Shown one piece after another: positions 2,227-55,001 of a DNA stretch of 64,000 nt (position 1 is the first letter of the stretch; the number at the start of each line of letters is the position of its first letter). The stretch comes from Spirochaetota bacterium (lineage in GTDB: Bacteria > Spirochaetota > JAGLSM01 > JAKPMW01). The notes under the pieces were generated by a model. It did no database searches. It was given only the letters and a program-made list of their open reading frames with translations, and was not told the DNA's origin. The position numbers were made by a program, and so were the translations under genes. The stretch is taken from contig JAITCI010000076.1 in NCBI GenBank assembly GCA_031283155.1, forward strand, positions 14,923 to 78,922. The letters are read 5' to 3'.

Positions 2227-2350
2227 TAACTCCCCCCAATAACAAAAAACAGAGGAACCGCTTTTTGATGAGGCGTCGCACATAAAATTGTCCGCAGAGG
2301 TGAAGTTTGCGGCGGAAAACCCGATATTTCACAAAAGAGGCGGGAAATCC

Positions 2351-4315
2351 ATGCAGGCGCAAACCCAATCTGTGCGTACCACTTTCTCCGCGCGGCGAAC
2401 GACCATGCAGATCAGCGGGGAAGCCGCGCATTCGCATCATGCAAGCGTGTGTGCATCGCCCGCCGCGATTCCCGATAATCCTTATCTTTCGAGCCAGCTC
2501 ATCGCCTATATCGGCAACAAACGCCGCCTCTTGCCGCTGATCCATCGCGCGATAACGCTCTGCGGGGTACCTCGTCCGGGTACGCGGTCTCTGTTTGTGG
2601 ATTTTTTTGCGGGCAGCGGGGCGGTGAGCCGGCTTGCCAAATTGCTCGGCTTTCATGTGATCGCGAATGACTGGGAGGAATACGCCTGGATCCTGAACGA
2701 GGCGTTTCTTGTCACCCAGCCCGGCGATCTCGAAACTCTGTTCGCGGAGAAGGGCGGCCTTGCCGAGGTACTCGCCCGTCTCAATTCGCTGGATGCTGAT
2801 GTTTGCCGGAATGGATTCATCAGCCGGTATTACGCGCCGCAAAAAACAGAGGACGCCGATCCCGAACGCGAGCGGATGTTTTATACGACGGAAAACGCGC
2901 GCAGGATCGACGCGATCCGCGCCTGGATTGAATATGAGTATCCGGGAGAGATTCTGAATGAGCGGCAAGCTATGGAGAAGCGTCTTCTCCTGGGATTGCT
3001 GCTCTATGAGGCGGCGACGCACGCGAATACCTCCGGCGTGTTTAAGGCCTACCATTGCGGCTTTGGGGGGCGCGGCGGCGATGCGCTTCAGCGCATTCTG
3101 AAACCGGTGGAACTGGAGTATCCGGTATTATGCGCGGGCAGCGCGGAGGCGTACCGGGAGGATGCGGAACATTTCGCAAAACGATTCGCGGATGGGAAGC
3201 GCGGGATAGATATCGCCTATCTTGATCCGCCCTACAACCAGCATCAATACGGCTCAAATTATCATTTACTGAACACCATCGCGCGCGGCGATATGCCCAA
3301 GGTAAATGAAAAGCCGCTCGCCAAAACACGCGGGAGCGCGGACAAGGCGGGGATCCGGCGCGACTGGGTGAAAACCCATTCCCCCTTTTGCAGCCGCAGA
3401 GACGCGAGCCGGGCATTTGCGGATCTGCTCCGGGTGATTCGCGCGCGGCATATCCTGATCTCCTACAGCACGGAAGGGATGATCCCCGTTGCAGAGATGA
3501 TCGCGATTCTTGGGCGGCATGGCCGGCTTGATCTGGTACTCTCGGAGTATACGCGCTATCGCGGCGGGAAGCAGGCGCTCACCAGTACAAACGCCAATGT
3601 TGAATTTGTTCTGATTGCGCATACGGAGGAGGCGAATACCGAGGCGAATACGGCAAGGGTGCTGCGCGCGATCCAGACCGCGCAGCTTGGGCTGTATCTG
3701 AAGCGCGTGGTAAGCCCGGCGGTGCTGATCGCGCGGGGGTATTGCGTGCGGGGAGCGCTCTGTATCGACGATGGGCTGGAGTTTGTCAGGACCCTTGCAA
3801 GCGGTGTAACCCTCGCTGTTACTGTAAAAAAATTCAAATGGATTGAGGCCTGCGTTTTCCGGCGGGGGCAGGAAGAATTGCAGCTCTGCGCGATGCCTGA
3901 GCCGGAATATGCCGAGGTTCTCTGCGAGATAGCGGCGATCACCTCGATAACCCGCGACGAAGAGCTGGGCGTGACCATGAGCCGCGCGCGCTATTTGCTC
4001 GCGAAGGGAAATATTCCCTCGCTTGCGGAGCCGCTTGCGGAGATACCCTATTTGCTCAAAAAATTCAACGAAAGCACAGATTATTCCGACTCGCTGAAGC
4101 GGCTGGATGAGGCGCTCGTGATCGCCCTGGAGATTGCGGATACAATGGAAGAGCGCCCATGTTCGGCGGGGCTTGCAAAAAAACACGTACTTTTCGCGCG
4201 TCGGCTGCAATTTCTGATGGATCGCAAGCTCGCGCTCCTGCCAAAGAAAAACGATCCGGATTTGTATAGTCTGCGCCGCGATCTGGACGCGCACTCCGCA
4301 AGACTTTTTCCTTGA
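2351..4315 (+). CDS. Dam-family (D12-class) N6-adenine DNA methyltransferase with ~200-aa uncharacterised C-terminal extension
   Basis: YIGNKRRLLPLI resembles the Dam N-terminal 'AGGK..LL' motif. FFAGSGAV is the SAM motif I (FxGxG) and DPPY is motif IV. Good SD (aagagg) before the ATG at 2351. The ORF continues to 655 aa with no recognisable C-terminal domain. Confidence 0.8.
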   Translation: MQAQTQSVRTTFSARRTTMQISGEAAHSHHASVCASPAAIPDNPYLSSQLIAYIGNKRRLLPLIHRAITLCGVPRPGTRSLFVDFFAGSGAVSRLAKLLGFHVIANDWEEYAWILNEAFLVTQPGDLETLFAEKGGLAEVLARLNSLDADVCRNGFISRYYAPQKTEDADPERERMFYTTENARRIDAIRAWIEYEYPGEILNERQAMEKRLLLGLLLYEAATHANTSGVFKAYHCGFGGRGGDALQRILKPVELEYPVLCAGSAEAYREDAEHFAKRFADGKRGIDIAYLDPPYNQHQYGSNYHLLNTIARGDMPKVNEKPLAKTRGSADKAGIRRDWVKTHSPFCSRRDASRAFADLLRVIRARHILISYSTEGMIPVAEMIAILGRHGRLDLVLSEYTRYRGGKQALTSTNANVEFVLIAHTEEANTEANTARVLRAIQTAQLGLYLKRVVSPAVLIARGYCVRGALCIDDGLEFVRTLASGVTLAVTVKKFKWIEACVFRRGQEELQLCAMPEPEYAEVLCEIAAITSITRDEELGVTMSRARYLLAKGNIPSLAEPLAEIPYLLKKFNESTDYSDSLKRLDEALVIALEIADTMEERPCSAGLAKKHVLFARRLQFLMDRKLALLPKKNDPDLYSLRRDLDAHSARLFP

Positions 4316-10597: not shown

Positions 10598-10628
10598 TAA
10601 AAAAAGCTGCCCCTGTTTGAGGCAGCTT
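10598..10628 (-). terminator. Rho-independent terminator for the lipoprotein gene (minus strand)
   Basis: AGCTGCC..loop..GGCAGCT stem. On the minus strand it is followed by TTTTTTT, 20 nt after the stop at 10650. Confidence 0.6.
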
Positions 10629-10649
10629 TCAAAGCACCTTGAAGAAATA

Positions 10650-11027
10650 CTATTCAGCAAGGTCAGCTTTTTTTGCGGTCAAGGCAGCGCCAAAATCCTG
10701 GGCTACGGCTGCCATTCCGGTAGCAGCTGTGGTGAGATCCCCGGAAAGGGCCGCAGAAAAATCGACTTTCCCTGTATACTTCTTCTGAAGCTCTTCAGTT
10801 TTGGTCTGGAAATCAGCGTTGAACTCCTGAATCCGTACTTCAATCGCGTCCAGAGCCTCTTTGCTCTCTGCTCCATCAAGCGAAGCATTCAAACCGTTGT
10901 AAAAATCAATGCCATCATTGTACAGAGAGATAGCTTCTTTCTGGTATTCCTTCGCCGCATTGCCGCACCCGGCAACAGCGCCCAGCACAAGGGCAAGAAC
11001 CAGCGCAAAACCAAGCATTTTCTTCAT
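10650..11027 (-). CDS. Small secreted lipoprotein
   Basis: MKKMLGFALVLALVLGAVAGC gives a signal peptide plus lipobox. Strong SD (aaggagattcatt ATG). Confidence 0.65.
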   Translation of the reverse strand: MKKMLGFALVLALVLGAVAGCGNAAKEYQKEAISLYNDGIDFYNGLNASLDGAESKEALDAIEVRIQEFNADFQTKTEELQKKYTGKVDFSAALSGDLTTAATGMAAVAQDFGAALTAKKADLAE

Positions 11028-11144: not shown

Positions 11145-12872
11145 TTAGCTGCTTGTAAGCCATTTGGTTATGCGGTGCAAAAAAGAGAGGGAGCGGGCCG
11201 GCTTTTGCCGTGAAACAGCTTTGTTGCCCATGTCTTCGCGGCAGAGCATATGCCCCTCTTGCAGAATGGGCAGCGCCGCGAGATATGCGGCATGCAGGGT
11301 TTCCGCCTCGCTCGCTCGCGAACACACAAGAGAGCAGACACGCCCGTCGGGGTCATTCCGGGGATAGCGCGCGATACGCATATTCCAGGGTGTTTCCGGC
11401 AGCGCATTTTCCGTGGTTTGCCCGTCTGCAGCACAGCAAGTGTGATCGGCGCGGAACACTATACTTATAGCGTTTCGGCCTGTGGGCTGTATATCCTCCA
11501 TCGCAAGTTCGTCTTTACTTGCGGCGAGGGCGAGTTTTGCCGTGCCGTGGCCGAAGGAAAGAAGATTCACCTCGCACTCGGGCGCTTTCAATCCCAGGCT
11601 GAAACTGCGCAGCATAAGATAGCCTGTTTCACTCTCCCATAGCCGGAGACTCACAAAGCCGCGATGGATGATGCCTTCCCGCCGGAACACTGCCTGGATT
11701 CTTTTGCAAAAGAGCCGATGTACTCTTTCCGGCAGACCCGAGTCGCCGGTATAGGCGGGGGAATATGCGCCCACACCGGCGGTCATACGTCCCTGGTTTC
11801 CGTTTTCAGCGCGCAGCGCGAGATCAGCCGCCCCGAGAATGCGCATACCAAACTTATCGGCGATACCTGTCAGAGCCAGCTCGCGCCCCTGATCGGGTAT
11901 CGCCACCGGAGGCAGGCACACAACCCGTGCCTGCGCGAGCAGGGTGCGGAAATATGCCTCTTCATGCGCGATTTTTACAGAGCGGATCCCGAAACCCACG
12001 GCAGGTATACCGGTCTCGGCAAGAGTTTCCCCAAGTCGCATGAGTTCCTCATTGGCTTCCGCGACTATGGCAAGCGGGATCTCGCTGCGGCGGGCGAAAT
12101 CAATGAGATCATTTTCATTTCCGGTTGAACAAGCGCCAAACCGCGCTTTACCCTGGACAGGCAGTGAAGCTGTCAGGCAGTCGATATCCTCGGCTGACGC
12201 CCGGTACAGCCAGACAAATTCTGTGTCCTCGTTTATGATCAGCGCGCTCGCGAGGGCAAGCGCTTCCGGTCCTCCGCCGAAAACCAGGATCGAGGAAAAT
12301 GTATCCGGGCGGGGAACGCGAATGTGGGCAAATGCCTTTTCGAGCCGGTTTACCCCTTTGTCAAAATTATCAAGCTGGGTATGCAGAAAAGATATCCGCA
12401 GACTGCTTTCCACAGTGATGCGGCGCAGGTTTTCCGCGATTTCTTTTAAGTCCTTCAGGGAACGTTCTACTGTGTCATACCGCGTAATCAGCGAACTGCG
12501 AAGATCGTCGATATCTTTTTGGATCATTTCAGGGAGTTTGGCAGTCGCTTCGGGATTGGGATCATAGTCTCCCTCGCTGAATTGCCGGAGAACGCGGTGG
12601 AGCGCGTCTGTCGGACCGCGAAGTTTTTTTGAGAAGAGGAGCGACCGAATGAGCAGAATCACAAGCGCGGAGAGAATGGCGACAGTTAAAATTCCGCCGC
12701 CGCTCATAAGCACAAAACTGGCAAAGTTATCAAAGCCGAATGTTCGCTTTAATACGCGCGGATCCTCAAGAGCATGTAAAAGGATATACAACAATATCAG
12801 AAGACCCGCCAGGGTGAAGAAACTGATCGAGATAAGTTTACGAATGAGATTTTTATCGGGGGTGCGCTGCAA
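11145..12872 (-). CDS. Membrane-anchored PurD-like (phosphoribosylamine-glycine ligase family) protein with N-terminal TM/coiled-coil region; ATP-grasp lid region shortened
   Basis: C-terminal half aligns to PurD: ILVFGGGPEALALA ~ VLVIGNGGREHALA, GVGAYSPA ~ GGMGAYSPA, GFVSLRLW ~ GFLYAGLM. The N-terminal 200 aa has two TM helices and coiled-coil. The segment between the N-domain and GxGAYSP is about 70 aa shorter than in E. coli PurD. Confidence 0.7.
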   Translation of the reverse strand: MQRTPDKNLIRKLISISFFTLAGLLILLYILLHALEDPRVLKRTFGFDNFASFVLMSGGGILTVAILSALVILLIRSLLFSKKLRGPTDALHRVLRQFSEGDYDPNPEATAKLPEMIQKDIDDLRSSLITRYDTVERSLKDLKEIAENLRRITVESSLRISFLHTQLDNFDKGVNRLEKAFAHIRVPRPDTFSSILVFGGGPEALALASALIINEDTEFVWLYRASAEDIDCLTASLPVQGKARFGACSTGNENDLIDFARRSEIPLAIVAEANEELMRLGETLAETGIPAVGFGIRSVKIAHEEAYFRTLLAQARVVCLPPVAIPDQGRELALTGIADKFGMRILGAADLALRAENGNQGRMTAGVGAYSPAYTGDSGLPERVHRLFCKRIQAVFRREGIIHRGFVSLRLWESETGYLMLRSFSLGLKAPECEVNLLSFGHGTAKLALAASKDELAMEDIQPTGRNAISIVFRADHTCCAADGQTTENALPETPWNMRIARYPRNDPDGRVCSLVCSRASEAETLHAAYLAALPILQEGHMLCREDMGNKAVSRQKPARSLSFLHRITKWLTSS

Positions 12873-13205
12873 GAGGAGCCTTCCGGTACGGATGATGCCC
12901 GCCTTATGAAGCGCGGGCTGCGTTCGTGGTTGAATGGATTATCCAGGGGAGCTGAATTGCCTTGCGTCCCGCATACGGAAGGATACAGAGGCGAAACCGG
13001 ACAAAAGCCCCCTCTGTATATGCGTACCCGCGCGCGTTTTTTCCCCGGTACCCGCAGGCTGCCCTTTCGGGTATCAGGAAGAGCAGGGTAAAAAATACAA
13101 TCGCCGCCCGCTGCATACACCCCCCTGAAATAATAATGCGCTTCTGACTAATAGTAGCTACAATAGCCTTGCGCTATCAAGCCTTATTACACTTGCAGCA
13201 GGAAA

Positions 13206-13985
13206 ATGTGCGCGTTTGAGGAAATCATGGAAGAGTGTTTTACGGTATCCAAAAAATCATTGGCCGCTGCCCTGGGGTTTGCGCGCTTTGCCGTTCTGGG
13301 GAGCGTTTTATGTATTCTGCTTGCGGTTTTCAGTCTCCGGAGTATCGGTTCCGGTTTTGTCATTTGTTCGCTTTTGGCACTGTATTTTCTGGGGATGCTC
13401 ATCTGGCAGTGGCGGCAGTATCGCCTGCTCTCTCGCGCGGCGATCATGCTTGACGCCGATGGCCTCCTGGTGAGTTATGGCGGGAAAGAGGTGCTATACA
13501 CGGGCGAGGAACTCTGCCTGGATCAGGGCTGTCTGCCGCGAGTCCTCGGCTTTGGGAAAAAGATGCAGGTATGCCGCGCTTTTCTTGTCTGCGGGCACGA
13601 ATTGTTTGTGGACGCGGAAACCCGCAGCCGCATGAATCGCGCGGATGCGCCGGTGCTGGGCGGGCGCGCCATTCCGCTCGATGCGGATACCTATACGCGC
13701 CTTCTCAAGAGTCTGGAGCGGCATGGCTGGAACCGCCCCTGTCGCGAGGGCGTGTCGGATGCGGCACCCAAACCCCCTTTGCGTTTCGCCTGGCTTGGAA
13801 CAGGGCTGCTCGCGCTTCTTGCCTCATTTTTTCTCAAGGATGCGCAGTTTTCCGTCGTCTTTCTTCTGGTTGGGATTGGCGGCGTTGGGCTTTTTTTGAA
13901 TACGCTGTATACAAAAAAATTACGCGAACCCCTCGTGTGCGTCCGAAAGCCTCCGTCAGCAGGCGAGAATGAAGCGGGGGATTAG
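13206..13985 (+). CDS. Hypothetical membrane protein
   Basis: Two N-terminal and two C-terminal hydrophobic helices. Start could be the M at 13227. Confidence 0.5.
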   Translation: MCAFEEIMEECFTVSKKSLAAALGFARFAVLGSVLCILLAVFSLRSIGSGFVICSLLALYFLGMLIWQWRQYRLLSRAAIMLDADGLLVSYGGKEVLYTGEELCLDQGCLPRVLGFGKKMQVCRAFLVCGHELFVDAETRSRMNRADAPVLGGRAIPLDADTYTRLLKSLERHGWNRPCREGVSDAAPKPPLRFAWLGTGLLALLASFFLKDAQFSVVFLLVGIGGVGLFLNTLYTKKLREPLVCVRKPPSAGENEAGD

Positions 13986-14035: not shown

Positions 14036-14400
14036 GTCGTCTCGCGGCGGCAGGGGATCGCGGCAGGATAATTTCGCCGAGGAAAGTCCGGACTCCAGGG
14101 AACAAGAGTACGCCGGGTAATACCCGGGCGGGTACGTGTACCCGACGGAAAGCGCAACAGAAAGCAAACCGCCTTATTTCTCCCTAAGAAATGGGTAAGG
14201 GTGAAAGGGTGGGGTAAGAGCCCACCGCGGTTTTGGCAACAAAACCGGCACGGCAAGCCCCGTATGGAGCAAGTTCAAGCAGTGAACCGGGTTCCCGAAT
14301 GGTTCACGGGTAGAGCGCAATCAGCGTTTGGGGAAACCCGGCGCGCAGACAGATGATCCCCCCAGACAGAATCCGGCTTATAGTCTCCGCGAGACGACGC
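14036..14400 (+). ncRNA. rnpB: RNase P RNA, bacterial type A
   Basis: GAGGAAAGTCCGGACTCC (P4 5' strand), GGGTAAGGGTGAAAGGGTGGGGTAAGAGCCCACC and ACAGAATCCGGCTTATAG (P4 3' strand). The P1 helix GTCGTCTCGCGG (14036-47) pairs with CCGCGAGACGAC (14387-98). Confidence 0.92.
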
Positions 14401-14952
14401 TTATACCCGCGCGCTCTGAAAAGCGATGCTGATGGAAAATGGACCGAATTCTGTTTTGAGCGTTAAAACAATGGTTCTGAGTTCCGGATGGATAAGCTCA
14501 ATGCCCTGTCCCAGATAGAACACAGGCGCGGAGATGCCGCAGTGGATCCCGTTTTCCGCAAGCAGAGTCACCGCGTGCGCGGCGATCTGGTTGCCGAGTT
14601 CAAGCAGGGCGGAGTGGAGAAGCTGGCGAAAATTCGCCGCATCGAGCATACCGGGATCAAGCTGCTTCTCGATCATGGCCCGCGAGAGGCGCACCGCCAC
14701 CCCTTTTGAAAATTCATAGACAATTTTTCCCTCAAGCTGCCCGTGAACGTCCAGGGTCAGCCCCATGCCCGCAGGCGTAAACTTTCCCTGCTGCACCGTA
14801 ACCGTATCCTTCGCTATCGAAAGCCCGGTATTGGCGCGCACGATTTTGACGGCGGATACAATAAAGGGGTTTATGGCGCGCGCGCTTGTACTCAAATGAG
14901 TATCGCGGGCAGCAGGCGCATTTGAGCCGGATTTTTGCATGGCGGTTTCCAT
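14401..14952 (-). CDS. CheC/CheX-like chemotaxis phosphatase paralogue
   Basis: INPFIVSAVKIV and ELGNQIAAHAVTLLAENG fit the CheC/CheX ExxN family. The stop codon abuts the 3' end of rnpB. Start chosen at the first internal Met and remains uncertain. Confidence 0.55.
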   Translation of the reverse strand: METAMQKSGSNAPAARDTHLSTSARAINPFIVSAVKIVRANTGLSIAKDTVTVQQGKFTPAGMGLTLDVHGQLEGKIVYEFSKGVAVRLSRAMIEKQLDPGMLDAANFRQLLHSALLELGNQIAAHAVTLLAENGIHCGISAPVFYLGQGIELIHPELRTIVLTLKTEFGPFSISIAFQSARV

Positions 14953-15080
14953 CGCGGAGTGCTCAGTGCTTCTATACTGGTTTATCGGCAAAAATCCGCT
15001 TCGCAAGAAGCTGTTCTTTTGGACTCTGGACGGGGGCAGCGTATATTTGCGGGTATATCGCGCGTTCGGAGAATGAAAAA

Positions 15081-16364
15081 ATGTCAATGCGGATAGAGCT
15101 TGCGGGGCAGGAAAAAATTCATGCGTACCGAAAGAGCGCCTTCGCGAGCGGACGGCTCCCGCCCGCGATTTTGCTTGTGGGTGCGCCTGTCTCCGGCAAG
15201 GCGAGTCTTGCCCTGGAATTCGCGAAGCAGCACCTCTGCGAATGTGGTACGCAATTCCCCGATGAACCGCCCCTCGCTCCCTGCGGCGAATGTTTTGCCT
15301 GCCGCGAAACCGCGAAGCTCAGGTATCCCGATTTTATAATGTTTTCCGCGCGCGAATTGGCACCGGCCTGCCGCGCCCTGGAAGCGATCATGGGGAGCGC
15401 GCGCGTCCGGCCGCTTCTGTTTGAGACGGAATTTCTCGCGCGGCGCGTTGTGCAGCATCTCCGCAGCGGTTTTTTCAAACTGAAGGACGTTTCCGCGAAA
15501 GAGGCGGAGAGCATTGGCGAAAAGATCGCGGCTCTGGAAACACTTACCCCTGATATCGCCCCCGAATCGCTTACGCTCGCCGACGAAGAAAATATCCGCG
15601 AGCGTCTGGCCGAGGCGATAAACACCATATCGGAACTGGACGCGCTCTCGCAGCACGCCGTTTTGCCTATCGCCGGGATTCAGGAGATAATCCGGCTTCT
15701 TGCGCGGCGGCCGCTTTTGGGGCATCGACGGGTTGTATTCATTGAAGAGATCGAAAAATTCCGGTCGGAGGGCGCGAACGCCTTTTTGAAAACCCTTGAA
15801 GAACCGCCGCCCGATACCCTTATTCTGATGACCGCTTCCAATATTGAGGCTGTGCTGCCCACTATCCGGTCGCGCTCCGCGATCCTTCCCGTTACGCATT
15901 TTACAAAGGCGGATATTCGCAGTATCGCCTTTACATATTACGGCCTGCCGGAGGAGGACGAACCGCTCGGATATACCGGGCGCGATCTCTACGCATATCT
16001 CGAATCGGCGGGCGATACCGCGCGCATCCTGCGAAACGATTTGCAGCGGTTTTTGGATCTGATCCAAACAGCGGATCGTGATCCCGCCTGCTTTGAGTTT
16101 GCGCATGACATGGACAAGCGCAAGGCCGCGCCCGCTTTTTTGTTTGCGCTCTCCGAACGCATAGCGGAGACGATCACCGCGCGGGCTCTCGATCAAAAAA
16201 ACGCCCAGTCTGATCTTTTGGCGCATTACCGCGGGATTTTTCTGCGGCGTATGCTCCGCGAGATACGCACCCTCGCGCGCGGCATACGAAAAAATAATTT
16301 CTCCGCCGCTCAGGGAATAATCGCCATCATGCAGGCTTTCTGGCTGGAGGGCGCGATGCCGTAA
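15081..16364 (+). CDS. holB: DNA polymerase III delta-prime subunit
   Basis: AILLVGAPVSGKASLA (degenerate Walker A), a Cys cluster (CECG..CGEC..C), and ANAFLKTLEEPPPDTLILM...LPTIRSRS, the classic delta-prime motifs. SD ggaga. Confidence 0.85.
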   Translation: MSMRIELAGQEKIHAYRKSAFASGRLPPAILLVGAPVSGKASLALEFAKQHLCECGTQFPDEPPLAPCGECFACRETAKLRYPDFIMFSARELAPACRALEAIMGSARVRPLLFETEFLARRVVQHLRSGFFKLKDVSAKEAESIGEKIAALETLTPDIAPESLTLADEENIRERLAEAINTISELDALSQHAVLPIAGIQEIIRLLARRPLLGHRRVVFIEEIEKFRSEGANAFLKTLEEPPPDTLILMTASNIEAVLPTIRSRSAILPVTHFTKADIRSIAFTYYGLPEEDEPLGYTGRDLYAYLESAGDTARILRNDLQRFLDLIQTADRDPACFEFAHDMDKRKAAPAFLFALSERIAETITARALDQKNAQSDLLAHYRGIFLRRMLREIRTLARGIRKNNFSAAQGIIAIMQAFWLEGAMP

Positions 16365-38403: not shown

Positions 38404-41391
38404 TTATACGTTCAGTTTTTCCAGGATCTGCTTCACGTCGTCGTATTCAAAATTATTGAATGCCGTCGACGCCTTGGTCAGCAAGTCGTTATTGGGTTCC
38501 CCGAAATCGTACACAAGCAGATCATTCAGGATGCGGGTTCCCTCAATCTGGTCAAAATTGTCAACTGCGGCCATCGTCTTTCGGAGGGCGTCCCGCAGGA
38601 GGCTGGCTTCCCCGGGTTTTTTGCTGACCCGTTTTGTGGGAACCTCAAAGATTGGTATCAGTTTTTTGAAGAGGTTGAAGAGTTTCTCCTGTAAATCCGG
38701 GTAGCGCTCCACGCAATACTGCATATCGCCTTCCCGCGCGGACGCCTCCAGTTTGGCGGCAGACTCGGATAACCGCATTATCCCCAGTATCGCCAGCGAC
38801 GATTTCATTGCGTGGATGGAGATCATAAAGGCGTTCAGATCCTGCGCCTCCAGCTTGTCCGCCATGCCGTCGCATTCCGACGTCAGCTTCGCGTAAAAGA
38901 ACTCGAATGTTTTCCGGTACATATCCTTCATGCCGGAAACGCGGCTCAAACCCAGCCCGGTGTCAATGTCGCTGATACCGTCAAGGGCGGCGATGAAATC
39001 ATCCTGTGTTTCGATGGTTTTCTTTTCATATTTCTCGATTGCGTTTGTGCGCACCTTTTTTTCCGGCAGCCATTCCAGAAGAACCGCTTCCATCTCGCTT
39101 AAGTCTATGGGCTTTGCGACAAACTCATTAAAGCCATTGGCCAGGAACATTTCCCGCATTCCCTGAACGGCGTTTGCGGTCAGCGCGATGATCGGGAATG
39201 TCGCGTGCCTTCCGCCGAGTTCGCGTATTTTGGCGGTCGCCTCCACGCCGTCCATTCCGGGCATCATGTGATCCATAAATACAATGTCGAAATCCTCTTT
39301 CTGCACCATATCAATGGATTCCTGTCCCGACATGGCGGTTTTTATGTTTATGTCAAAGAGTCCCATCAGACCAACCGCGACCCGCAGGTTAAACTCGTTG
39401 TCGTCCACAACCAGGATATTGGCCTCGGGCGCGCGCAGAACATGTTCCGTGGAGGCGGTCTTTTTGAATTTCACGCCGCTCTTTTTGCCTATCACTTTGG
39501 GTATTATGATCGTAAACACGCTGCCCTGCTCATACTCGCTGTCAACCAGCAGCGTACCGCTCATCATCTCCACAAAGGATTTGCATATCGAAAGCCCGAG
39601 ACCCGTTCCTACAATGTCGCGGGTTTTGTTCGTGTTGACGCGCTCAAAGGTGTTGAACAACTTGGGCAGGTCTTCCTTGCGGATGCCCATGCCTGTATCC
39701 GAAATCTCAAAAATGAGATCGTCCTCCCCGACGGTCAGCTTCATTTTGACGTGACCCTTTTCGGTGTACTTGATCGCGTTGCTGCATATATTCGTCAGTA
39801 TCTGGCGGAGCCGTATATCGTCCCCGAAGAGGTAATCGGGCAAATCGCCGGAAGTTTCATACTGGAAGTCCAGCCCCTTCTTTTGCGCCACAAAGGTAAA
39901 CATCGACGATACGTTGTCCATAAGCGCCAGGAAATCGTAATCCACGGGATTGAGCGATAATTTTCCGGCCTCGATTTTCGAGAGGTCCAGGATGTCGTTG
40001 ATCAGGCCAAGAAGCGAATGTGCGGACAGGGTAATATCCTTCACGTAGGCTTCCTGCCGCTGGGTGAGGTTCTCGTGCGCCAGAAGGTCGGTCATACCAA
40101 TAATGGCGTTCATGGGGGTGCGTATCTCGTGGCTCATATTGGAAAGGAAAGCCGTTTTTGAGGCCGACGCGGCTTCGGCGGCGAGCTTGGCCTTGTTCAG
40201 GTTTTCCTCGTAATTCTTTTTCATGGTCGCGTCGATAAAGGAGTGGAACAGCACCAGCGACCCGTCTACCCAGCGGATAATGGCGGATTTCCCGGTGAGC
40301 CATTTTTCGAGTCTGTCGTCCCAGGAGTACCCTACCTCCTTGATTTCCTCATCTTCCTTGTCGGGCCAGACCTGCGGAGAAACGCAGTAGATACACGGGC
40401 GATCCAGCCTTTTCAGCACCTTGTAGCATTTTTTGTTGAGGCAGTCCTTCTGATCCACGCCATGGGCTATTGCCGCCAGCTTGTTTATAAACACAAGGTT
40501 TTTCTCCGAGTCGGTTATGGTTATCATGGCGTCCATATAATCCATAACAGCCGAGGTCTTGTTCATTTCCGCAACGGCGTCAATCATATCGCCGATGTTA
40601 TTGGCCAGAGTCCCAAGTTCATCCCTGTGCGGGCTGCGTATCGTGTATCCCATATTGCCTTTCGCGATTTCAGCCATTGCCCTTTGCATCTTCAGGATAG
40701 GTTCCCGAATCGTATTTGATATCACAAACGACATCACGGCAGCCAGGATGATAGTGAGAAGAGTGAAGATAAGGACGGTTTCCACAGCTTCGACGTAGTG
40801 CTGCGCGACCATATCCATTTTTTCCTGTACCGTGGAGGTCGCCAGGGTGCTCAGCGCCGTCAGTCTGTCGCTTATCGCGTTTGCCCCCTGTATGCCTTCG
40901 GGGATAATCCTCCCCAGCCATACAGCGTCGTTATTGGCGACGGCTACGCGGACGTTCCGCGAGAAAACCGCAAAATCACTGTTAAACCTGGCCATAATGG
41001 CGTCGTATTGTTCCATACGCCACTGCTTGTCCGACTGGCTCAGAAAATTATTGCCCATTACGGTGTCGCGGTAATTGTTCATGTATTTGTAAAACGAATT
41101 TATCAGAAGATCGAGGTCGTCATATATCTGGGATAATTCCCTCGAGTATATGCCGTTCTCCATCAGATAGAATCTCGAGAGGTTATGAAAACGCATTTGC
41201 AGCATCACATTGTTGGCGTCGGTTAAATACATATACCGCTGCAGGGTTGAGTTTATCAGAATGGTATATTCGTTGCTGATTTTCACAAACTGCGACATGG
41301 TAATCGTGGACAGGGTTATCATAATGACAATAAGCGACCCAAACGCGAGAAAGAGTTTGTTCCGCATTTTCATGTTTCTGAGCCAGTTCAT
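38404..41391 (-). CDS. Hybrid sensor histidine kinase (periplasmic sensor-HAMP-PAS-HisKA-HATPase-REC-Hpt)
   Basis: H-box MSHEIRTPMNAIIGMTDLL, HATPase G-boxes, REC (VVDDNEFNLRV ... D ... K), and an Hpt-like C-terminus. Confidence 0.9.
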   Translation of the reverse strand: MNWLRNMKMRNKLFLAFGSLIVIMITLSTITMSQFVKISNEYTILINSTLQRYMYLTDANNVMLQMRFHNLSRFYLMENGIYSRELSQIYDDLDLLINSFYKYMNNYRDTVMGNNFLSQSDKQWRMEQYDAIMARFNSDFAVFSRNVRVAVANNDAVWLGRIIPEGIQGANAISDRLTALSTLATSTVQEKMDMVAQHYVEAVETVLIFTLLTIILAAVMSFVISNTIREPILKMQRAMAEIAKGNMGYTIRSPHRDELGTLANNIGDMIDAVAEMNKTSAVMDYMDAMITITDSEKNLVFINKLAAIAHGVDQKDCLNKKCYKVLKRLDRPCIYCVSPQVWPDKEDEEIKEVGYSWDDRLEKWLTGKSAIIRWVDGSLVLFHSFIDATMKKNYEENLNKAKLAAEAASASKTAFLSNMSHEIRTPMNAIIGMTDLLAHENLTQRQEAYVKDITLSAHSLLGLINDILDLSKIEAGKLSLNPVDYDFLALMDNVSSMFTFVAQKKGLDFQYETSGDLPDYLFGDDIRLRQILTNICSNAIKYTEKGHVKMKLTVGEDDLIFEISDTGMGIRKEDLPKLFNTFERVNTNKTRDIVGTGLGLSICKSFVEMMSGTLLVDSEYEQGSVFTIIIPKVIGKKSGVKFKKTASTEHVLRAPEANILVVDDNEFNLRVAVGLMGLFDINIKTAMSGQESIDMVQKEDFDIVFMDHMMPGMDGVEATAKIRELGGRHATFPIIALTANAVQGMREMFLANGFNEFVAKPIDLSEMEAVLLEWLPEKKVRTNAIEKYEKKTIETQDDFIAALDGISDIDTGLGLSRVSGMKDMYRKTFEFFYAKLTSECDGMADKLEAQDLNAFMISIHAMKSSLAILGIMRLSESAAKLEASAREGDMQYCVERYPDLQEKLFNLFKKLIPIFEVPTKRVSKKPGEASLLRDALRKTMAAVDNFDQIEGTRILNDLLVYDFGEPNNDLLTKASTAFNNFEYDDVKQILEKLNV

Positions 41392-51281: not shown

Positions 51282-52100
51282 ATGCTGTGTGAATTTGACT
51301 ACCTCGAACCAACGACGCTCGCCGATGTACTCGAAATTCTCGGTCAGGGCGATGCGGGCGTCCGGATCCTGGCAGGCGGAACGGATCTGCTTGTCAATAT
51401 CCGCGCCGGTTTGATTACCCCAAAAGCGCTTGTGAATATCAAAAAAACAGCCGGGCTGGATACTTTTGCCTTTCATCCCGACCGGGGGCTGGAGATTGGA
51501 CCTGCTGTCACCATAAACCAGCTTATCACCAATACCGAAATCGCCCGCCGGTATCCGCTGCTGGAGCAATGCGCGGAGATGCTTGCTTCGTATCAGCTTC
51601 GGAACCGCGCTACCGTTATCGGGAATATCGTGAATGCTTCCCCGTCCGCCGATATGGCACCCGCGCTTCTTTGTTACAGGGCGAAACTGACGCTCACCTC
51701 CAAACGAGGTTCCAGAAAGGTGGGGATCGCGGAATTTTTTACGGGCGTCAAAAAGACCGTGCTTGCCGCCGACGAGATCGTCGAAAAAATTACTATTCCG
51801 GCGTCCGAGGCGGACGGCAAGGGCGGGTACGCCAAGCTCAAGCGTATCAAGGGGCATGACCTCGGCATTGTGGGCGTCGCCCTGCACAAAAAGCAGGATT
51901 ACATTCGCATTGCGGTCAGCGCCTCCGCGCCCACGCCGATCCTCGCGCCTGATTTTCAGGCAAAAGATTCTCCCGATTATATAGCCGAACAGGTGCTTGC
52001 CGCGATTAAGCCCATCGATGATATACGTTCCTCGCGCGAGTATCGGCGGTTCATGGCGTCGGTATTCGTAAAGCGTCTTTTGGAAGAGGTGCGCGCATGA
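51282..52100 (+). CDS. Xanthine-dehydrogenase-family FAD-binding subunit (CoxM/XdhB-like)
   Basis: ILAGGTDL FAD-binding motif and a CO_deh_flav_C-like C-terminus. Confidence 0.85.
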   Translation: MLCEFDYLEPTTLADVLEILGQGDAGVRILAGGTDLLVNIRAGLITPKALVNIKKTAGLDTFAFHPDRGLEIGPAVTINQLITNTEIARRYPLLEQCAEMLASYQLRNRATVIGNIVNASPSADMAPALLCYRAKLTLTSKRGSRKVGIAEFFTGVKKTVLAADEIVEKITIPASEADGKGGYAKLKRIKGHDLGIVGVALHKKQDYIRIAVSASAPTPILAPDFQAKDSPDYIAEQVLAAIKPIDDIRSSREYRRFMASVFVKRLLEEVRA

Positions 52101-52582
52101 AGATTACCCTCACTGTAAATGATCAGGTATATACGCGCGAATGCGCTCCATCAAAAAATCTCCTGCATTTTTTGCGCGAGGACATAGGACTCACGGGTAC
52201 CAAGGAAGGCTGCGGCGCGGGCGAGTGCGGCGCGTGTACGGTTATCATGGACGGCAAGGCGGTCAATGCCTGCCTTGTGCTTGCCGCCGAAGCCAACGGA
52301 GCGCAGATCCGAACCGTCGAGGGCGAGGCGAAGGACGGAATCCTCTCCCCCCTGCAGCAAAAGTTTATGGAGCACCACGCCGTCCAATGCGGTTTTTGTA
52401 CTCCCGGAATGCTTATGTCATTGCGTGAGCTTCTGGAACGAAACGCGAAGCCGGGCGAGCATGAGATCAAACAGGCGATTGAAGGTAATTTCTGCCGCTG
52501 CACCGGATACCAGCAGATCATTGAGGCGGTTCTTGATCTCACCGGCCAGTTGGAGCACAAGGGGGAGCTGCGCCATGTATGA
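52097..52582 (+). CDS. XDH-family [2Fe-2S] ferredoxin subunit
   Basis: CGAGECGACTV and QCGFCTPGM...CRCTGY cysteine motifs. Confidence 0.9.
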   Translation: MKITLTVNDQVYTRECAPSKNLLHFLREDIGLTGTKEGCGAGECGACTVIMDGKAVNACLVLAAEANGAQIRTVEGEAKDGILSPLQQKFMEHHAVQCGFCTPGMLMSLRELLERNAKPGEHEIKQAIEGNFCRCTGYQQIIEAVLDLTGQLEHKGELRHV

Positions 52583-55001
52583 TCAGATCGATCAAAAGGA
52601 TCTCAGCTTCGTGGGGCATGACGTACCGCGCATCGACGCAATCGAAAAGCTCACAGGCGAAGCGGCCTACGTCAGCGATATGATCCTGCCCGGGATGCTC
52701 CATGCCGCGGTTAAACGCAGCCCTCATGCGCGCGCGCGGATCGTGCGTATCGATACTTCCAAAGCGATGGCGCTGCCCGGGGTGCGCTCCATTGTCATCG
52801 GCGACGAACTCGATTACCGCATCGGGCTGTATGTGGTTGATAAATATATCCTCGCGCGGGAAGAGGTTCGGCACTACGGCGAGGCGGTCGCGGCGGTGGC
52901 GGCGGATACGCTTATCATCGCGAAGGAGGCTGTCCGGCTTATCGAGGTTGAGTATGAGCCGCTTCCGGCTGTCCTTGCGCCGCTCGACGCGATTAACATT
53001 GACGATCCTGCGAAGCCCGGGAAAGCCCCGCTTGTACATCCAAAGCTGGGCGAGTATGACCATGTACGCAACGCCTTCACCCCGCAGCCCGGAACCAATG
53101 TGGCCAACTATACCAAGTTTCGCAAGGGCGATATTGACAAAGGTTTCGCCGAGGCCGACTGGATAGTCGAGCGGCAGTATACGAATCCATCGGTGCAGCA
53201 CGTCCCCATGGAAACGCACGTAGCGATAGTGCAATGGCAGGCCGGCGACCGGATCACGATCTGGACCTCGGCGCAGTCGCCCTACGCGGTACGCAATCTC
53301 TTCTGCCACTCGTTCAAAATCCCGCACAAAAATGTGCGCGTTATCATCCCCTATATCGGGGGCGGGTTTGGCGGCAAGGCCGGCATCGGTATTGAGCCGC
53401 TCGTGGCCTGCCTCTCGCGCAAGGCGGGCGGGCGTCCGGTCAAATTGCAGGCGACGCGCGAGGAGGAGTTCAGCCTCCTTCCCTGCCGAAGCGCGCTCAC
53501 CTACCGCATCAAAACCGGCGTGCGCAAGGACGGCAAAATTGTCGCGCAAAAAATGACCATGTACTGGGATTCCGGCGCGTACGCCGATTACGCGGTGAAT
53601 GTGACGCGCGCATCGGGCTATTCCTGCACCGGCCCCTACGAGATCCCGAACGCCTGGGTGGACGCCTATACGATCTATACCAATAAGCCTTATGGCACGG
53701 CCTACCGCGGTTTTGGGCACGTGGAATTTTCGTGGGGGCTTGAGCGCCAGATGGATCTCGCCGCGAGAACCATCGGCATGGATCCGCTCGAGTTCCGCCG
53801 GTTAAATACCCTCAAGCCCGGATCAGTCACGCTCACGGGGGAGCGCATCACCGAGCACACCGGAAATGTCACCAAGTGTATTGAAGAGGCCGCGCGCGGC
53901 ATTCACTATGGCAAGCTCACGAAGGAAGAAGCGGCGCGGCAGAAAAAGACCGGCTGGAAGATCGGAAAGTCCGTGGCCGGATTGCAGAAAGCGCCCGCCA
54001 TGCCGCCCTTTACGGGAACCGCGATCTTCCTCAAGATGAACGAGGACGGCACCGCCACCGCCAATGTTTCCCTGACCGATATGGGCCAGGGCACCTACAC
54101 CTCGCTCGCGCAGATGCTGGCCGAGCGATTGCGGATGCCGGTGGAGAATATCAAAATAGCCTTTGAGTGCGATACCGACCGCGATCCCTACGATTGGCAA
54201 ACGGTGGCTTCCAAGGGGCTTCTGATTGCGGGGAATGCCGCGATCCTCGCTGCGGACGATCTTCTCGCGAATGCCTACGATATGGCGGGGCAGATCCTGC
54301 GCGCGCTTCCGTGCGATCTGGATCATGACGGCAAGGGAGTATTCGTCCGCCACAATCACGAGAAAAAGATCAGCTTCGCCGAGATGGCTGCGGGCTACGC
54401 CTATCCCGACGGCAACGGTATCGGCGGGCCGCTGGTGGGCGTGGGGCGCTATATCGCGCAGGGGCTTACCAATCTGGACAAGGCCACCGGGCAGGGCAAC
54501 CCCGCGCTCGACTGGACCTACGGCGCGCACGGTCTTGTTGCGGAGATCAATGAAGAAACCGGCGAGTACAATATTTTGAAAGTCTGTTCCGTGTTTGACG
54601 TGGGCAAGGCGATCAATCCTGCGGAGGTGCGTGGGCAGGCCGTGGGCGGGATGATCCAGGGACTCGGGACGGCGTGCTGTGAGGGGTATATCTACGACGC
54701 CGAGGGGCGGCTCCTGAATCCCTCCTTCACCGACAATAAAATTTTTACAGCAATGGACTTACCCGAGGTGATTGAGAGCGCGGTTGTGGAAACCGCGCAG
54801 CTTGACGGCCCCTTTGGCGCGCGCGGCGTCGGAGAACATTCCATGATTGGGGTATGCGCCGCGCTCGGGAATGCCATCCTGCAGGTCACAGGCGCGGAAC
54901 TGACGCATATGCCCATCCGCTTTGAGGATGTATGGCGCGCCCTGCAAACAAAGCAATCCCCCGACGCCTGGATCGTAAAAAGTCCCGTGAAGCATTTATA
55001 G
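52575..55001 (+). CDS. XDH-family molybdopterin-binding large subunit
   Basis: 809 aa. YRGFG motif (xanthine dehydrogenase/aldehyde oxidase type, not the CODH AYRGAGR). The start overlaps the previous stop by 8 nt. Confidence 0.9.
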   Translation: MYDQIDQKDLSFVGHDVPRIDAIEKLTGEAAYVSDMILPGMLHAAVKRSPHARARIVRIDTSKAMALPGVRSIVIGDELDYRIGLYVVDKYILAREEVRHYGEAVAAVAADTLIIAKEAVRLIEVEYEPLPAVLAPLDAINIDDPAKPGKAPLVHPKLGEYDHVRNAFTPQPGTNVANYTKFRKGDIDKGFAEADWIVERQYTNPSVQHVPMETHVAIVQWQAGDRITIWTSAQSPYAVRNLFCHSFKIPHKNVRVIIPYIGGGFGGKAGIGIEPLVACLSRKAGGRPVKLQATREEEFSLLPCRSALTYRIKTGVRKDGKIVAQKMTMYWDSGAYADYAVNVTRASGYSCTGPYEIPNAWVDAYTIYTNKPYGTAYRGFGHVEFSWGLERQMDLAARTIGMDPLEFRRLNTLKPGSVTLTGERITEHTGNVTKCIEEAARGIHYGKLTKEEAARQKKTGWKIGKSVAGLQKAPAMPPFTGTAIFLKMNEDGTATANVSLTDMGQGTYTSLAQMLAERLRMPVENIKIAFECDTDRDPYDWQTVASKGLLIAGNAAILAADDLLANAYDMAGQILRALPCDLDHDGKGVFVRHNHEKKISFAEMAAGYAYPDGNGIGGPLVGVGRYIAQGLTNLDKATGQGNPALDWTYGAHGLVAEINEETGEYNILKVCSVFDVGKAINPAEVRGQAVGGMIQGLGTACCEGYIYDAEGRLLNPSFTDNKIFTAMDLPEVIESAVVETAQLDGPFGARGVGEHSMIGVCAALGNAILQVTGAELTHMPIRFEDVWRALQTKQSPDAWIVKSPVKHL

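Follow-up and report, generated by a model that had tools for sequence, protein, structure and literature searches.

A membrane-anchored, lid-less PurD homolog of Spirochaetota, probably retained as a non-enzymatic protein

The locus and its neighborhood

The gene considered here lies on the reverse strand of a 64-kb window, by which we mean the whole stretch of DNA analyzed (Table 1). Its product is listed by NCBI as a 'hypothetical protein' (MDR2734886.1, locus tag LBC99_09670) and by IMG as a 'phosphoribosylamine-glycine ligase/HAMP domain-containing protein'. The start of the reading frame agrees with that of its homologs, which begin at an equivalent position. Related loci fall into those encoding an intact membrane-anchored PurD and those encoding a dead form, and both share a neighborhood composed of rnpB, CheX, holB and a divergent membrane protein, to which LeuRS and an epimerase are added in locus L006. 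The relative position of rnpB is the same in the window and in loci L004, L009 and L008. In L006, an intact PurD gene follows LeuRS and the epimerase and precedes the divergent membrane protein, an order shared with the window; identity to the window reaches 70% for LeuRS and 50% for the epimerase, and the membrane proteins match with E=7e-20. Judged by gene order and sequence comparison, the window gene is the positional ortholog of the intact anchored PurDs. Unlike these orthologs, it is not followed by purE, which lies directly 3' of the intact gene in L004, L009/L010 and L011/L012. A functional tie to CheX and chemotaxis, or to holB, was considered and rejected as ordinary synteny, rnpB, LeuRS and holB being housekeeping genes. 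Scanning for promoters and terminators yielded sites no more frequent than chance.

Two neighbors deserve attention as possible partners. The 259-residue divergent membrane protein, a candidate, has been kept beside anchored PurDs of the dead and the intact kind alike. In relatives, the gene immediately upstream of the anchored PurD encodes a secreted protein of 213-243 residues, with full-length copies in L001, L002, L005/L008 and L007 as well as in the intact-PurD locus L004. Only a 70-residue remnant of this gene persists in the window, so the secreted protein, if it acts as a partner, can be done without here. Pfam contains no family matching the divergent membrane protein, the upstream secreted protein, its remnant or a small lipoprotein. 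A weak SLATT_1 match was set aside; it falls in an opposite-strand reading frame of L004 that probably does not represent a true gene.

Table 1. Features of the anchored PurD-like gene and its surroundings (window coordinates; residue numbers refer to the encoded protein)
Feature	Position	Strand	Remarks
Anchored lid-less PurD-like pseudoenzyme, whole gene	11145..12872	-	575 aa, TTG start
TM helix 1, residues ~9-37	12762..12848	-	Kyte-Doolittle peak 2.53
Extracytoplasmic loop, residues 38-48	12729..12761	-	DPRVLKRTFGF; short, highly conserved
TM helix 2, residues ~49-84	12621..12728	-	From hydrophobicity; runs on into juxtamembrane helix
HAMP-like segment, residues ~85-141	12450..12620	-	hhalign match 77-141
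Helical linker, residues 142-190	12303..12449	-	Motif ITV(E/D)SSLRISFL family-wide
PurD N-domain homolog, residues 191-318	11919..12302	-	Alignment and family profile
Linker of ~10 residues, 319-328	11889..11918	-	In place of ATP-grasp B/lid (PurD 122-193)
PurD A-domain homolog, residues 329-455	11508..11888	-	
PurD C-domain homolog, residues 456-556	11205..11507	-	
70-aa remnant of secreted protein	12904..13116	-	Signal peptide and C-terminal strand; blastp E=1e-5 to L002
259-aa membrane protein, divergent	13206..13985	+	Hydrophobic blocks ~18-69 and ~192-236 around soluble domain
rnpB, RNase P RNA	14042..14396	+	Rfam RF00010, 254.8 bits; synteny anchor, outside the system

A PurD fold behind a membrane module

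PurD is held to be a soluble, monomeric housekeeping enzyme. The homology to it claimed for the C-terminal part by the first-pass annotation is real, as judged with TIGR00877, GARS_A and a profile of 60 canonical PurDs, though it lies far below family thresholds. TIGR00877 matches the protein with E=3.3e-13 at 49.2 bits, below its PurD cutoff of 288, and Pfam GARS_A with E=7e-4 at 19.9 bits, below its threshold of 27; GARS_N and GARS_C have no Pfam match in the protein. The 60-sequence profile matches with E=2.6e-28 and, in the opposite direction, a profile of the anchored family matches the PurDs of the PDB with E=3e-11. All three core domains of PurD (N, A and C) are present, and residues 186-575 were modeled confidently by AF2 from a 107-sequence alignment, of which 91% of rows are canonical PurDs, biasing fine detail toward PurD. 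A full-length AF2 model from a five-sequence family alignment was poor (pLDDT 44.6). Throughout the 64-kb window, the 60-sequence profile finds this gene as its sole match and no canonical purD, and among the best 120 PurD matches no canonical purD carries the LBC99_ tag of the same metagenome-assembled genome.

The two transmembrane helices assigned earlier to the N-terminus stand on hydrophobicity, and the low-confidence full-length model likewise contains a helix at residues 9-36, with a helical region after the membrane segments extending to residue ~190. The 'coiled coil' assigned to that region starts with a HAMP-like segment. No region has a larger share of invariant columns than the outer loop (0.55), whose motif R..GFDSFA.F also occurs in the intact fusion P0009. 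Together with this loop, the most conserved parts of the protein are TM helix 2, the juxtamembrane helix, the linker motif and new motifs in the A and C domains.

The HAMP-like match found by hhalign consists of KLRGPTDALHRVLRQFSEGDY, a connector about six residues longer than usual, and EMIQKDIDDLRSSL. Against 59 HAMP columns it obtained P=1.3e-4 and a probability of 54-69%, relative to five reference HAMPs, two of which came from this window; a coiled-coil control segment scored 3-8% against HAMPs. A profile search of the PDB weakly matched the TM2-HAMP regions of PcaY, NarQ and Tsr (E 0.0075 to 0.84). Pfam HAMP (PF00672) matches two of seven N-terminal modules of the family, with a best E=0.006, and has no match in the window protein itself at E<=1, the gathering score of 25 bits being missed. 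The arrangement recalls HAMP-linked signaling proteins, including chemoreceptors, histidine kinases such as NarQ and PP2C phosphatases, in which a transmembrane hairpin, a HAMP-like helix-connector-helix, a helical linker and a cytoplasmic output follow in the same order; the weak sequence likeness extends to the TM2-HAMP regions just named and to the HAMPs of two other proteins of the window. Unlike those proteins, however, the window protein has a HAMP-like segment below the Pfam threshold, an outer loop of ~11 residues that leaves no room for a periplasmic sensor domain, and as its output a dead biosynthetic ATP-grasp fold instead of a kinase, MCP, cyclase or phosphatase.

Loss of the lid and the active site

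Alignment of the family profile with E. coli PurD (1GSO) gives two blocks, pairing residues 192-319 with 2-121 and residues 329-560 with 194-426. About 9-10 residues stand in for 1GSO 122-193, and the same gap appears in the family multiple alignment, bearing out the earlier estimate that the lid region is some 70 residues shorter. The B domain is missing together with the ATP-binding Lys143 (A. aeolicus numbering) and the B-loop GLAAGK, which in PurD contacts the gamma-phosphate (PMC2978367). The C domain in turn lacks ~23 residues of PurD (the GLE...FHAGT loop) and carries a lineage-specific insertion at ~478-495. Thus, whereas PurD (EC 6.3.4.13; TIGR00877; PDB 1GSO, 2YW2) possesses the B/lid domain, the window protein does without it, and differs further in its 190-residue N-terminal membrane module and in having no purE downstream.

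The divergence of key residues noted in the first-pass annotation is likewise confirmed and proves extensive, as nearly all binders of ATP, Mg, glycine and acyl-phosphate, with roles assigned from published work (PMC8880213; PMC2978367), are substituted. Among PurD positions conserved at 85% or more, 46 of 69 are lost or deleted. In the N domain, GGREHA has become GPEALA, PGNxG is lost (RASA stands there) and EGSK reads AHEE; in the A domain, QDHK is replaced by DLAL, GPNTGGMG by GRMTAGVG and EFNCRFGDPE by SFSLGLKAPE. The last of these forms part of SFSLGLKAPECE at residues 423-434, aligned to PurD EFNCRFGDPETQ, and the counterpart of the Gly-rich motif is GRMTAGVGAYSPAY at residues 361-374. 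In A. aeolicus numbering, Glu100 corresponds to A302, Lys103 to E305, Asp212 to L351, Lys214 to L353 and Arg287 to G427, Glu185 is deleted with the lid, and the only ligands of ATP, Mg or glycine kept are E331 (Glu192) and E432 (Glu292). The E and N of EFNxR, which by analogy with other ATP-grasp enzymes we take to be Mg ligands, are S423 and S425. The general-base Asp (Asp295 of human GARS) is replaced by A430. The C domain retains R511, Y530, R545 and D547. The equivalents of Arg13, Asp295 and Asn229 are gone, and those of Glu197, Glu297 and Arg385 alone remain; a role in binding purine intermediates, as suggested earlier, finds no support in this set. By alignment, the protein lacks the lid and the ATP, Mg2+, glycine and acyl-phosphate residues, and with these lost, GAR synthesis is predicted to be impossible.

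The membrane module is more widely distributed than the damage to the active site. The family profile matches P0006 (3e-111), P0009 (2e-48) and P0010 (1e-31); the best stretches span profile positions 5-335, and in P0009 and P0010 the match takes in residues 5-320, the N-terminal module included. Among the best 120 PurD matches, at least six clusters of 601-643 residues (P0009, P0010, P0155-P0158) are intact anchored forms. These fusions, from uncultured Spirochaetota, contain an entire PurD whose catalytic motifs are all present, unlike the dead, lid-less window protein, and share with it a homologous module of two transmembrane helices, HAMP-like segment and linker. An intermediate subfamily (P0006, P0008, L008) has a lid-length segment and dead motifs. 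Since intact PurDs are also anchored, the anchor is older than the death of the enzyme; it is ancestral, present on intact PurDs beside purE, and not a trait of the crippled form, as had been supposed. The order of change is therefore from intact, through dead with a lid-length segment, to lid-less. The anchored family is rare: clustering at 90% identity gives about a dozen groups, all metagenomic. It occurs in at least two GTDB species by a genome scan with a five-sequence alignment that reaches the dead subfamilies only. One apparent member, P0011 (3,928 aa), proved spurious, being a tandem-repeat protein in which 13 weak repeat matches were summed. A literature search on PurD and ATP-grasp pseudoenzymes and on transmembrane or HAMP-linked PurD returned no description of the anchored family, and the intact membrane-anchored fusions are apparently undescribed.

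Deletion of the B domain is also seen in four unanchored PurD-like metagenome proteins of 350-362 residues (P0026, P0134, P0147, P0127), of which three have degenerate catalytic motifs. Unlike the window protein they have no membrane module, and they are not close kin of the anchored family; on sequence comparison, they appear to represent independent lid losses.

Retention of the gene and its possible role

None of the four genes compared contains a stop codon, and pN (0.21-0.36) lies below pS (0.52-0.76). Across all four regions, the dead A domain included, dN/dS is 0.10-0.49, and for the A domain inside the lid-less family it is 0.10-0.23, both being approximate because synonymous sites are near saturation. 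One-third of columns (33%) are invariant, and new family-specific motifs have appeared, namely APECE and LLSFGHG in the A domain and, further, CSRxSE and ARYP..DPD. Reading frames of 545-623 residues remain intact in at least seven diverged clusters. Purifying selection and new conserved motifs therefore identify the gene as a maintained pseudoenzyme rather than a pseudogene. Nearly all catalytic residues have been lost while the dead domain has stayed under purifying selection, as expected of a pseudoenzyme, and the proposal of a repurposed pseudo-enzyme made at the outset is supported by the missing lid and catalytic residues, the intact gene and the selection acting in all domains.

On balance, we consider it probable that the window protein descends from a membrane-anchored PurD, has lost both lid and catalysis, and is kept as a non-enzymatic adaptor or signaling protein. 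The ancestor would have carried a complete PurD behind two transmembrane helices, a HAMP-like segment and a helical linker, its gene lying next to rnpB and often preceding purE. In the window lineage, the PurD part would then have shed the B/lid domain and the ligand-binding residues, and the dead form would have been held by purifying selection while gaining conserved motifs of its own. The product is probably a dimeric, non-catalytic inner-membrane protein. Its transmembrane hairpin, with the very conserved outer loop, and its HAMP-like bundle would position a pair of PurD-shaped domains on the cytoplasmic side of the membrane. These domains may provide a surface for docking or ligand sensing and signal through the HAMP-like helices to membrane or periplasmic partners, candidates being the divergent membrane protein and, in relatives, the upstream secreted protein. 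The dead form may thereby retain a second, ATP-independent role already held by the anchored enzyme. That the protein acts as a regulator or adaptor is plausible.

Such a role has parallels. Synapsin, a membrane-associated, non-catalytic ATP-grasp protein, has retained both ATP binding and the lid. The TTL-like domain of TTLL12 is another ATP-grasp-type fold in a non-ligase role (PMC3520985). In both cases, the fold has been kept for scaffolding or regulation, as proposed for the window protein. However, both are eukaryotic and unrelated by descent, and the window protein, unlike synapsin, lacks the lid and nucleotide ligands.

The conserved motifs also bear on a different outcome, in which the protein became a sensor or enzyme with a new small-molecule, metal or redox site signaling through the HAMP-like helices, or came to catalyze some other ATP-independent reaction. 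This neo-functionalization would fit the four family-specific motifs, the invariant C319, C389, C433, C517 and C544 and the H403 and H442 conserved among lid-less members, the retention of E331, E432, R511, R545 and D547 in the old pocket, and the strong, if approximate, constraint on the A domain. Nevertheless, four of the five cysteines are missing in the sister dead subfamily P0006/P0008, five invariant cysteines out of ten only modestly exceed the overall invariance, and Pfam and TIGRFAM-type profiles match no other enzyme or metal-binding family in the protein; we thus regard this outcome as unlikely. Already disfavored, and highly improbable, is a functionless relic, that is, a decaying purD pseudogene with a chance open reading frame. 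The destroyed catalytic machinery, the decay of the upstream secreted-protein gene in the window and the ~22% identity of the PurD-like part to the intact positional ortholog, next to 70% for the adjacent LeuRS, are compatible with decay, but the intact frames in diverged clusters, the absence of stops, the deficit of pN relative to pS in every domain even with synonymous sites near saturation, and the invariant columns and new motifs argue against it. Finally, a working PurD acting as the organism's GAR synthetase through an unusual minimal ATP site has in its favor the modeled retention of the overall fold, the lack of a second purD within the window and the IMG/JGI label on this protein and some homologs, but its chance is close to negligible given the missing B domain with Lys143 and GLAAGK, the substituted equivalents of Lys103, Asp212, Lys214, Arg287 and the EFN(C)R pair, the deleted Glu185, the scores far below the curated cutoffs of TIGR00877 and GARS_A, and the contrast with intact orthologs in purE.

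Returning to the non-enzymatic adaptor, a broader and rather tentative suggestion is that two transmembrane helices, a HAMP-like segment and PurD together constitute an unrecognized membrane signaling or assembly module, with the PurD fold as its output or docking domain. If so, the PurD fold would have an ATP-independent job at the spirochete inner membrane; it might, for instance, form the cytoplasmic foot of a complex that spans the envelope and includes the secreted and divergent membrane proteins. PRA is a very unstable intermediate; the intact forms would then couple purine synthesis, through PRA handling, physically or by regulation to a membrane complex.

A membrane-tethered PurD clade with a HAMP-like transmitter was unexpected, as was the retention of the gene despite the loss of lid and chemistry. 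In practical terms, the IMG label would cause step 2 of de novo purine synthesis to be wrongly assigned to genomes carrying such a gene. For the biology of the family, the retention of a dead PurD suggests that a core purine enzyme also has a second role outside catalysis. Moreover, the occurrence of three stages in one chromosomal position provides a natural series for the passage from metabolic enzyme to pseudoenzyme, which could show which parts of the ATP-grasp fold a non-catalytic function needs.

Homology to PurD and the state of the active site

The target, a 575-residue PurD-like protein, shares both descent and fold with PurD. An identical sequence is deposited at NCBI as a 'hypothetical protein' of an uncultured Spirochaetota MAG (MDR2734886.1, LBC99_09670) and labelled 'phosphoribosylamine-glycine ligase/HAMP domain-containing protein' in IMG. 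The first-pass annotation had traced the C-terminal ~370 residues to PurD, and this is borne out by TIGR00877 (E=3.3e-13, 49 bits; cutoff 288), by Pfam GARS_A (19.9 bits; cutoff 27), both well under the family thresholds, and by a PurD HMM built from 60 canonical sequences, whose single match in the window was this ORF (E=2.6e-28). By every functional membership criterion tested, the target falls outside the PurD family.

The lid, or B domain of the ATP-grasp fold, comprises residues 123-191 of E. coli PurD (PMC2978367). When aligned with the E. coli structure 1GSO, the profile of the anchored family matched in two blocks (192-319 to 2-121 and 329-560 to 194-426), with ~9 target residues in the place of PurD 122-193; the same gap was found in the multiple alignment. 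The earlier claims of a lid region ~70 residues shorter and of diverged key residues in a crippled ATP site were thus correct, and the motifs quoted were exact, namely SFSLGLKAPECE at 423-434, aligned with EFNCRFGDPETQ, and the Gly-rich GRMTAGVGAYSPAY at 361-374. In Aquifex-type numbering from QM/MM work on A. aeolicus PurD, ATP is recognized by Lys103, Lys143, Glu185, Glu192, and Lys214, glycine by Asp212, Arg287, and Glu292, and Mg by Glu100 and Lys214 (PMC8880213). In the structure of human GARS, the B-loop GLAAGK contacts the gamma-phosphate and Asn229 the phosphates, Arg13 and Arg292 stabilize the acyl-phosphate, Asp295 is put forward as the general base, and the PRA pocket includes Arg385 (PMC2978367).

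Fate of PurD residues and motifs in the target
PurD	Target
Glu100 / Lys103 (EGSK)	A302 / E305
Lys143 and B-loop	deleted
Glu185	deleted
Asp212 / Lys214 (QDHK)	L351 / L353
Asn229 equivalent	M363
EFNxR, E and N	S423 / S425
Arg287	G427
Asp295 equivalent	A430
GGREHA	GPEALA
PGNxG	lost

Among residues with an assigned role, only E331 (Glu192/197), E432 (Glu292/297), and R511 (Arg385 equivalent) survive; R545 and D547 are also kept. At the 69 positions conserved at >=85% in ~97 canonical PurDs, the target keeps 23 (mostly Gly, Pro, and Leu) and has lost 46. Judged from these residues, ATP-dependent ligation by the target is not credible.

The lid is also missing from unanchored, soluble PurD-like proteins of 350-362 aa (P0026, P0134, P0147, and P0127 from the database searches, with 1302-2363 of L013, a locus on another contig, listed alongside). 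Catalytic motifs are degenerate in three such proteins and kept in P0127; all lie on contigs too short to show a gene neighbourhood. These appear to be independent losses, and their existence indicates that lid loss is recurrent among PurD paralogs.

A series of anchored PurDs at one locus

When 1.84 billion representatives were searched exhaustively with the profile, the close family came first, followed by three further full-length relatives and then by hundreds of ordinary PurDs. One candidate, the 3,928-aa tandem-repeat protein P0011, was unrelated on inspection: its E=4.5e-24 summed 13 weak repeat matches, showing that repeat scores, once summed, can inflate matches in such a search. In the database proteins P0009 (617 aa) and P0010 (643 aa), the N-terminal module of the target is joined to a complete PurD that has kept GGREHA, KADGLAAGKGV, QDHK, GPNTGGMGAY, and EFNCRFGDPETQ. 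An intermediate subfamily (P0006, P0008, and locus L008) retains a lid-length segment with dead motifs, in which KADGLAAGKGV has become IEAGRLQADLNP and EFNCRFGDPETQ has become NIFFGLLSPESD. Five clusters are lid-less, six are intact (601-643 aa, from a search with P0010), and a further dead cluster has 14 members. All members derive from metagenomes or MAGs labelled Spirochaetota, and the dead subfamilies occur in two species among 185,579 GTDB representatives; the family is rare.

Gene order at the intact locus L006 (divergent membrane protein, anchored purD, HldD-like epimerase, LeuRS, CheX) agrees with that of the window. Identity is 70% for LeuRS and 50% for the epimerase, and the two membrane proteins match at E=7e-20, while the PurD-like proteins are only ~22% identical. 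RNase P RNA lies just past the cluster in the window, in L008 of the dead subfamily, and in the intact loci L004 and L009; mechanical ORF lists of homologous loci carry spurious ORFs over rnpB (e.g., 'GGLLP..FTLT...GGLFSVALSVT'). Immediately 3' of the intact anchored purD, purE is found in L004, L009/L010, and L011/L012; the 64-kb window contains no purE or other pur gene. Since the anchored forms all occupy one locus, they constitute a series: intact (with purE), dead with a lid-length segment, and dead and lid-less. The target is the ortholog of an active anchored enzyme, and the membrane anchor predates the decay of the enzyme, which is a new finding.

Features of the window
Feature	Position	Strand	Remarks
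Membrane PP2C/SpoIIE-type phosphatases (two)	405-2165; 55024-56925	+	one with a bona fide HAMP at residues 332-377
D12-class N6-adenine DNA methyltransferase	2288-4315	+	large, 675 aa
Stem-loop and T-run	~10600-10630		visible past the stop codon of the 125-aa gene
Lipoprotein-like gene	10650-11027	-	125 aa; signal peptide then Cys; downstream of target, before epimerase
Target gene	11145-12872	-	575 codons, TTG start
Secreted-protein remnant	12904-13116	-	70 aa; signal peptide and C-terminal strand; sole window copy
Divergently transcribed membrane protein	13206-13985		259 aa; conserved beside dead and intact forms
RNase P RNA (rnpB)	14042-14396	+	Rfam RF00010, 254.8 bits; between membrane-protein gene and CheX
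CheX-like ORF	14401-15087	-	228 aa; orthologs 174-181 aa
holB, mechanical ORF	14886-16364	+	492 aa; overlaps CheX-like ORF by ~200 bp
HAMP-containing hybrid histidine kinase	38404-41391	-	
XdhB-like FAD subunit	51282-52100	+	xanthine-dehydrogenase family
ORF between XdhB- and XdhA-like genes	52097-52582		161 aa
XdhA-like Mo subunit	52266-55001	+	xanthine-dehydrogenase family

A secreted protein of 213-243 aa, from a family with no Pfam match, is encoded directly upstream of the anchored gene in L001, L002, L005/L008, and L007, and also, overlooked by the gene caller, in the intact-PurD locus L004. The remnant in the window reflects a deletion within the gene in this lineage. The lipoprotein-like gene, preceded by an AT-rich spacer, occurs in the window lineage only; its position is held by an aBig_2 gene in L001, and in L008 the epimerase abuts the PurD-like gene. 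The Xdh genes, together with the AllF, AllG, AllH, cyclase, and amidase genes flanking the locus in L002, hint at purine catabolism or salvage where the anchored PurD is dead. For holB, the HMM match begins at residue 83 and orthologs are shorter (416-423 aa), which makes a start codon further downstream probable. In L001, a 714-aa homolog of the D12 methyltransferase class adjoins holB, and an N6_N4_Mtase and HTH pair is likewise inserted near the locus. Otherwise the window is unremarkable for a spirochaete chromosome, with genes for the flagellar collar protein FlcA, an MCP, LeuRS, and IleRS, two CheX genes, holB, and rnpB.

The membrane module

Hydrophobic segments at 9-37 and 49-84 correspond to the two N-terminal TM helices annotated earlier and are followed by helices up to ~190. 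The topology comprises an inside N-terminus, TM1, an 11-residue outer loop, TM2, and a cytoplasmic helix-connector-helix. Pfam HAMP has no match in the target and a sub-threshold match (E=0.006) in two of seven family modules; the module profile gave weak but consistent matches to the TM2-HAMP regions of PcaY (E=0.0075), NarQ, and Tsr. Using hhalign with bona fide HAMPs (two from the window phosphatase and histidine kinase proteins, three from other proteins), target residues 77-141 aligned over 59 HAMP columns (P=1.3e-4, probability 54-69%), compared with a probability of 3-8% for the downstream coiled-coil as control. The tether is therefore a conserved hairpin with a helix best described as HAMP-like, with a longer connector, rather than as a proven HAMP. 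The architecture resembles that of HAMP-linked transmembrane signalling proteins, whereas the output domain is unprecedented among them.

Selection and possible role

In the lid-less family, pN is 0.21-0.36 versus a pS of 0.52-0.76, and none of the four genes compared contains a stop codon. Region by region, dN/dS is ~0.10-0.49 for the membrane module and for the N, A, and C domains alike, and the dead A domain falls at 0.10-0.23. Synonymous sites are near saturation, which makes these ratios rough, but the purifying direction is clear, and the target gene is not a pseudogene. Five members, 52-58% identical, share 33% invariant columns. Conservation peaks in the stretch from the outer loop into TM2 (KRTFGFDxFASF), in the juxtamembrane helix (SKKLxGPxDALH), in the linker motif ITVDSSLRISFL, in part common to intact fusions, and in motifs new in the A and C domains (APECE, LLSFGHG, ARYP..DPD, and CSRxSE). 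Constraint on the protein has moved, not vanished. Very probably, the target is a dead enzyme kept by selection and descended from an active anchored PurD.

Such a protein may relay signals or act as an adaptor without catalysis, a second role that the anchored enzyme would already have had. Because HAMP-type bundles are dimeric, the target is probably a dimer with two PurD-shaped domains on the cytoplasmic side of the membrane; the divergent membrane protein is a candidate partner, as is the secreted protein in relatives. This specific mechanism is offered tentatively. That the PurD-fold domain has gained a new site, for a ligand, a metal, or redox chemistry, is an unlikely alternative. That the protein is a functionless relic is very improbable given the excess of pS over pN, the uninterrupted reading frames, and the invariant third of columns. 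A still-active PurD is scarcely conceivable with the lid deleted and two-thirds of the conserved positions (46/69) lost.

A literature search for anchored or HAMP-linked PurDs and for PurD pseudoenzymes found no description of either. Synapsin, an ATP-grasp-fold protein that is non-catalytic, provides a parallel to the target. Another is TTLL12, also a non-catalytic protein of this fold (PMC3520985). The target is a metabolic enzyme turned pseudoenzyme, and its novelty lies in the membrane-bound, HAMP-like architecture.
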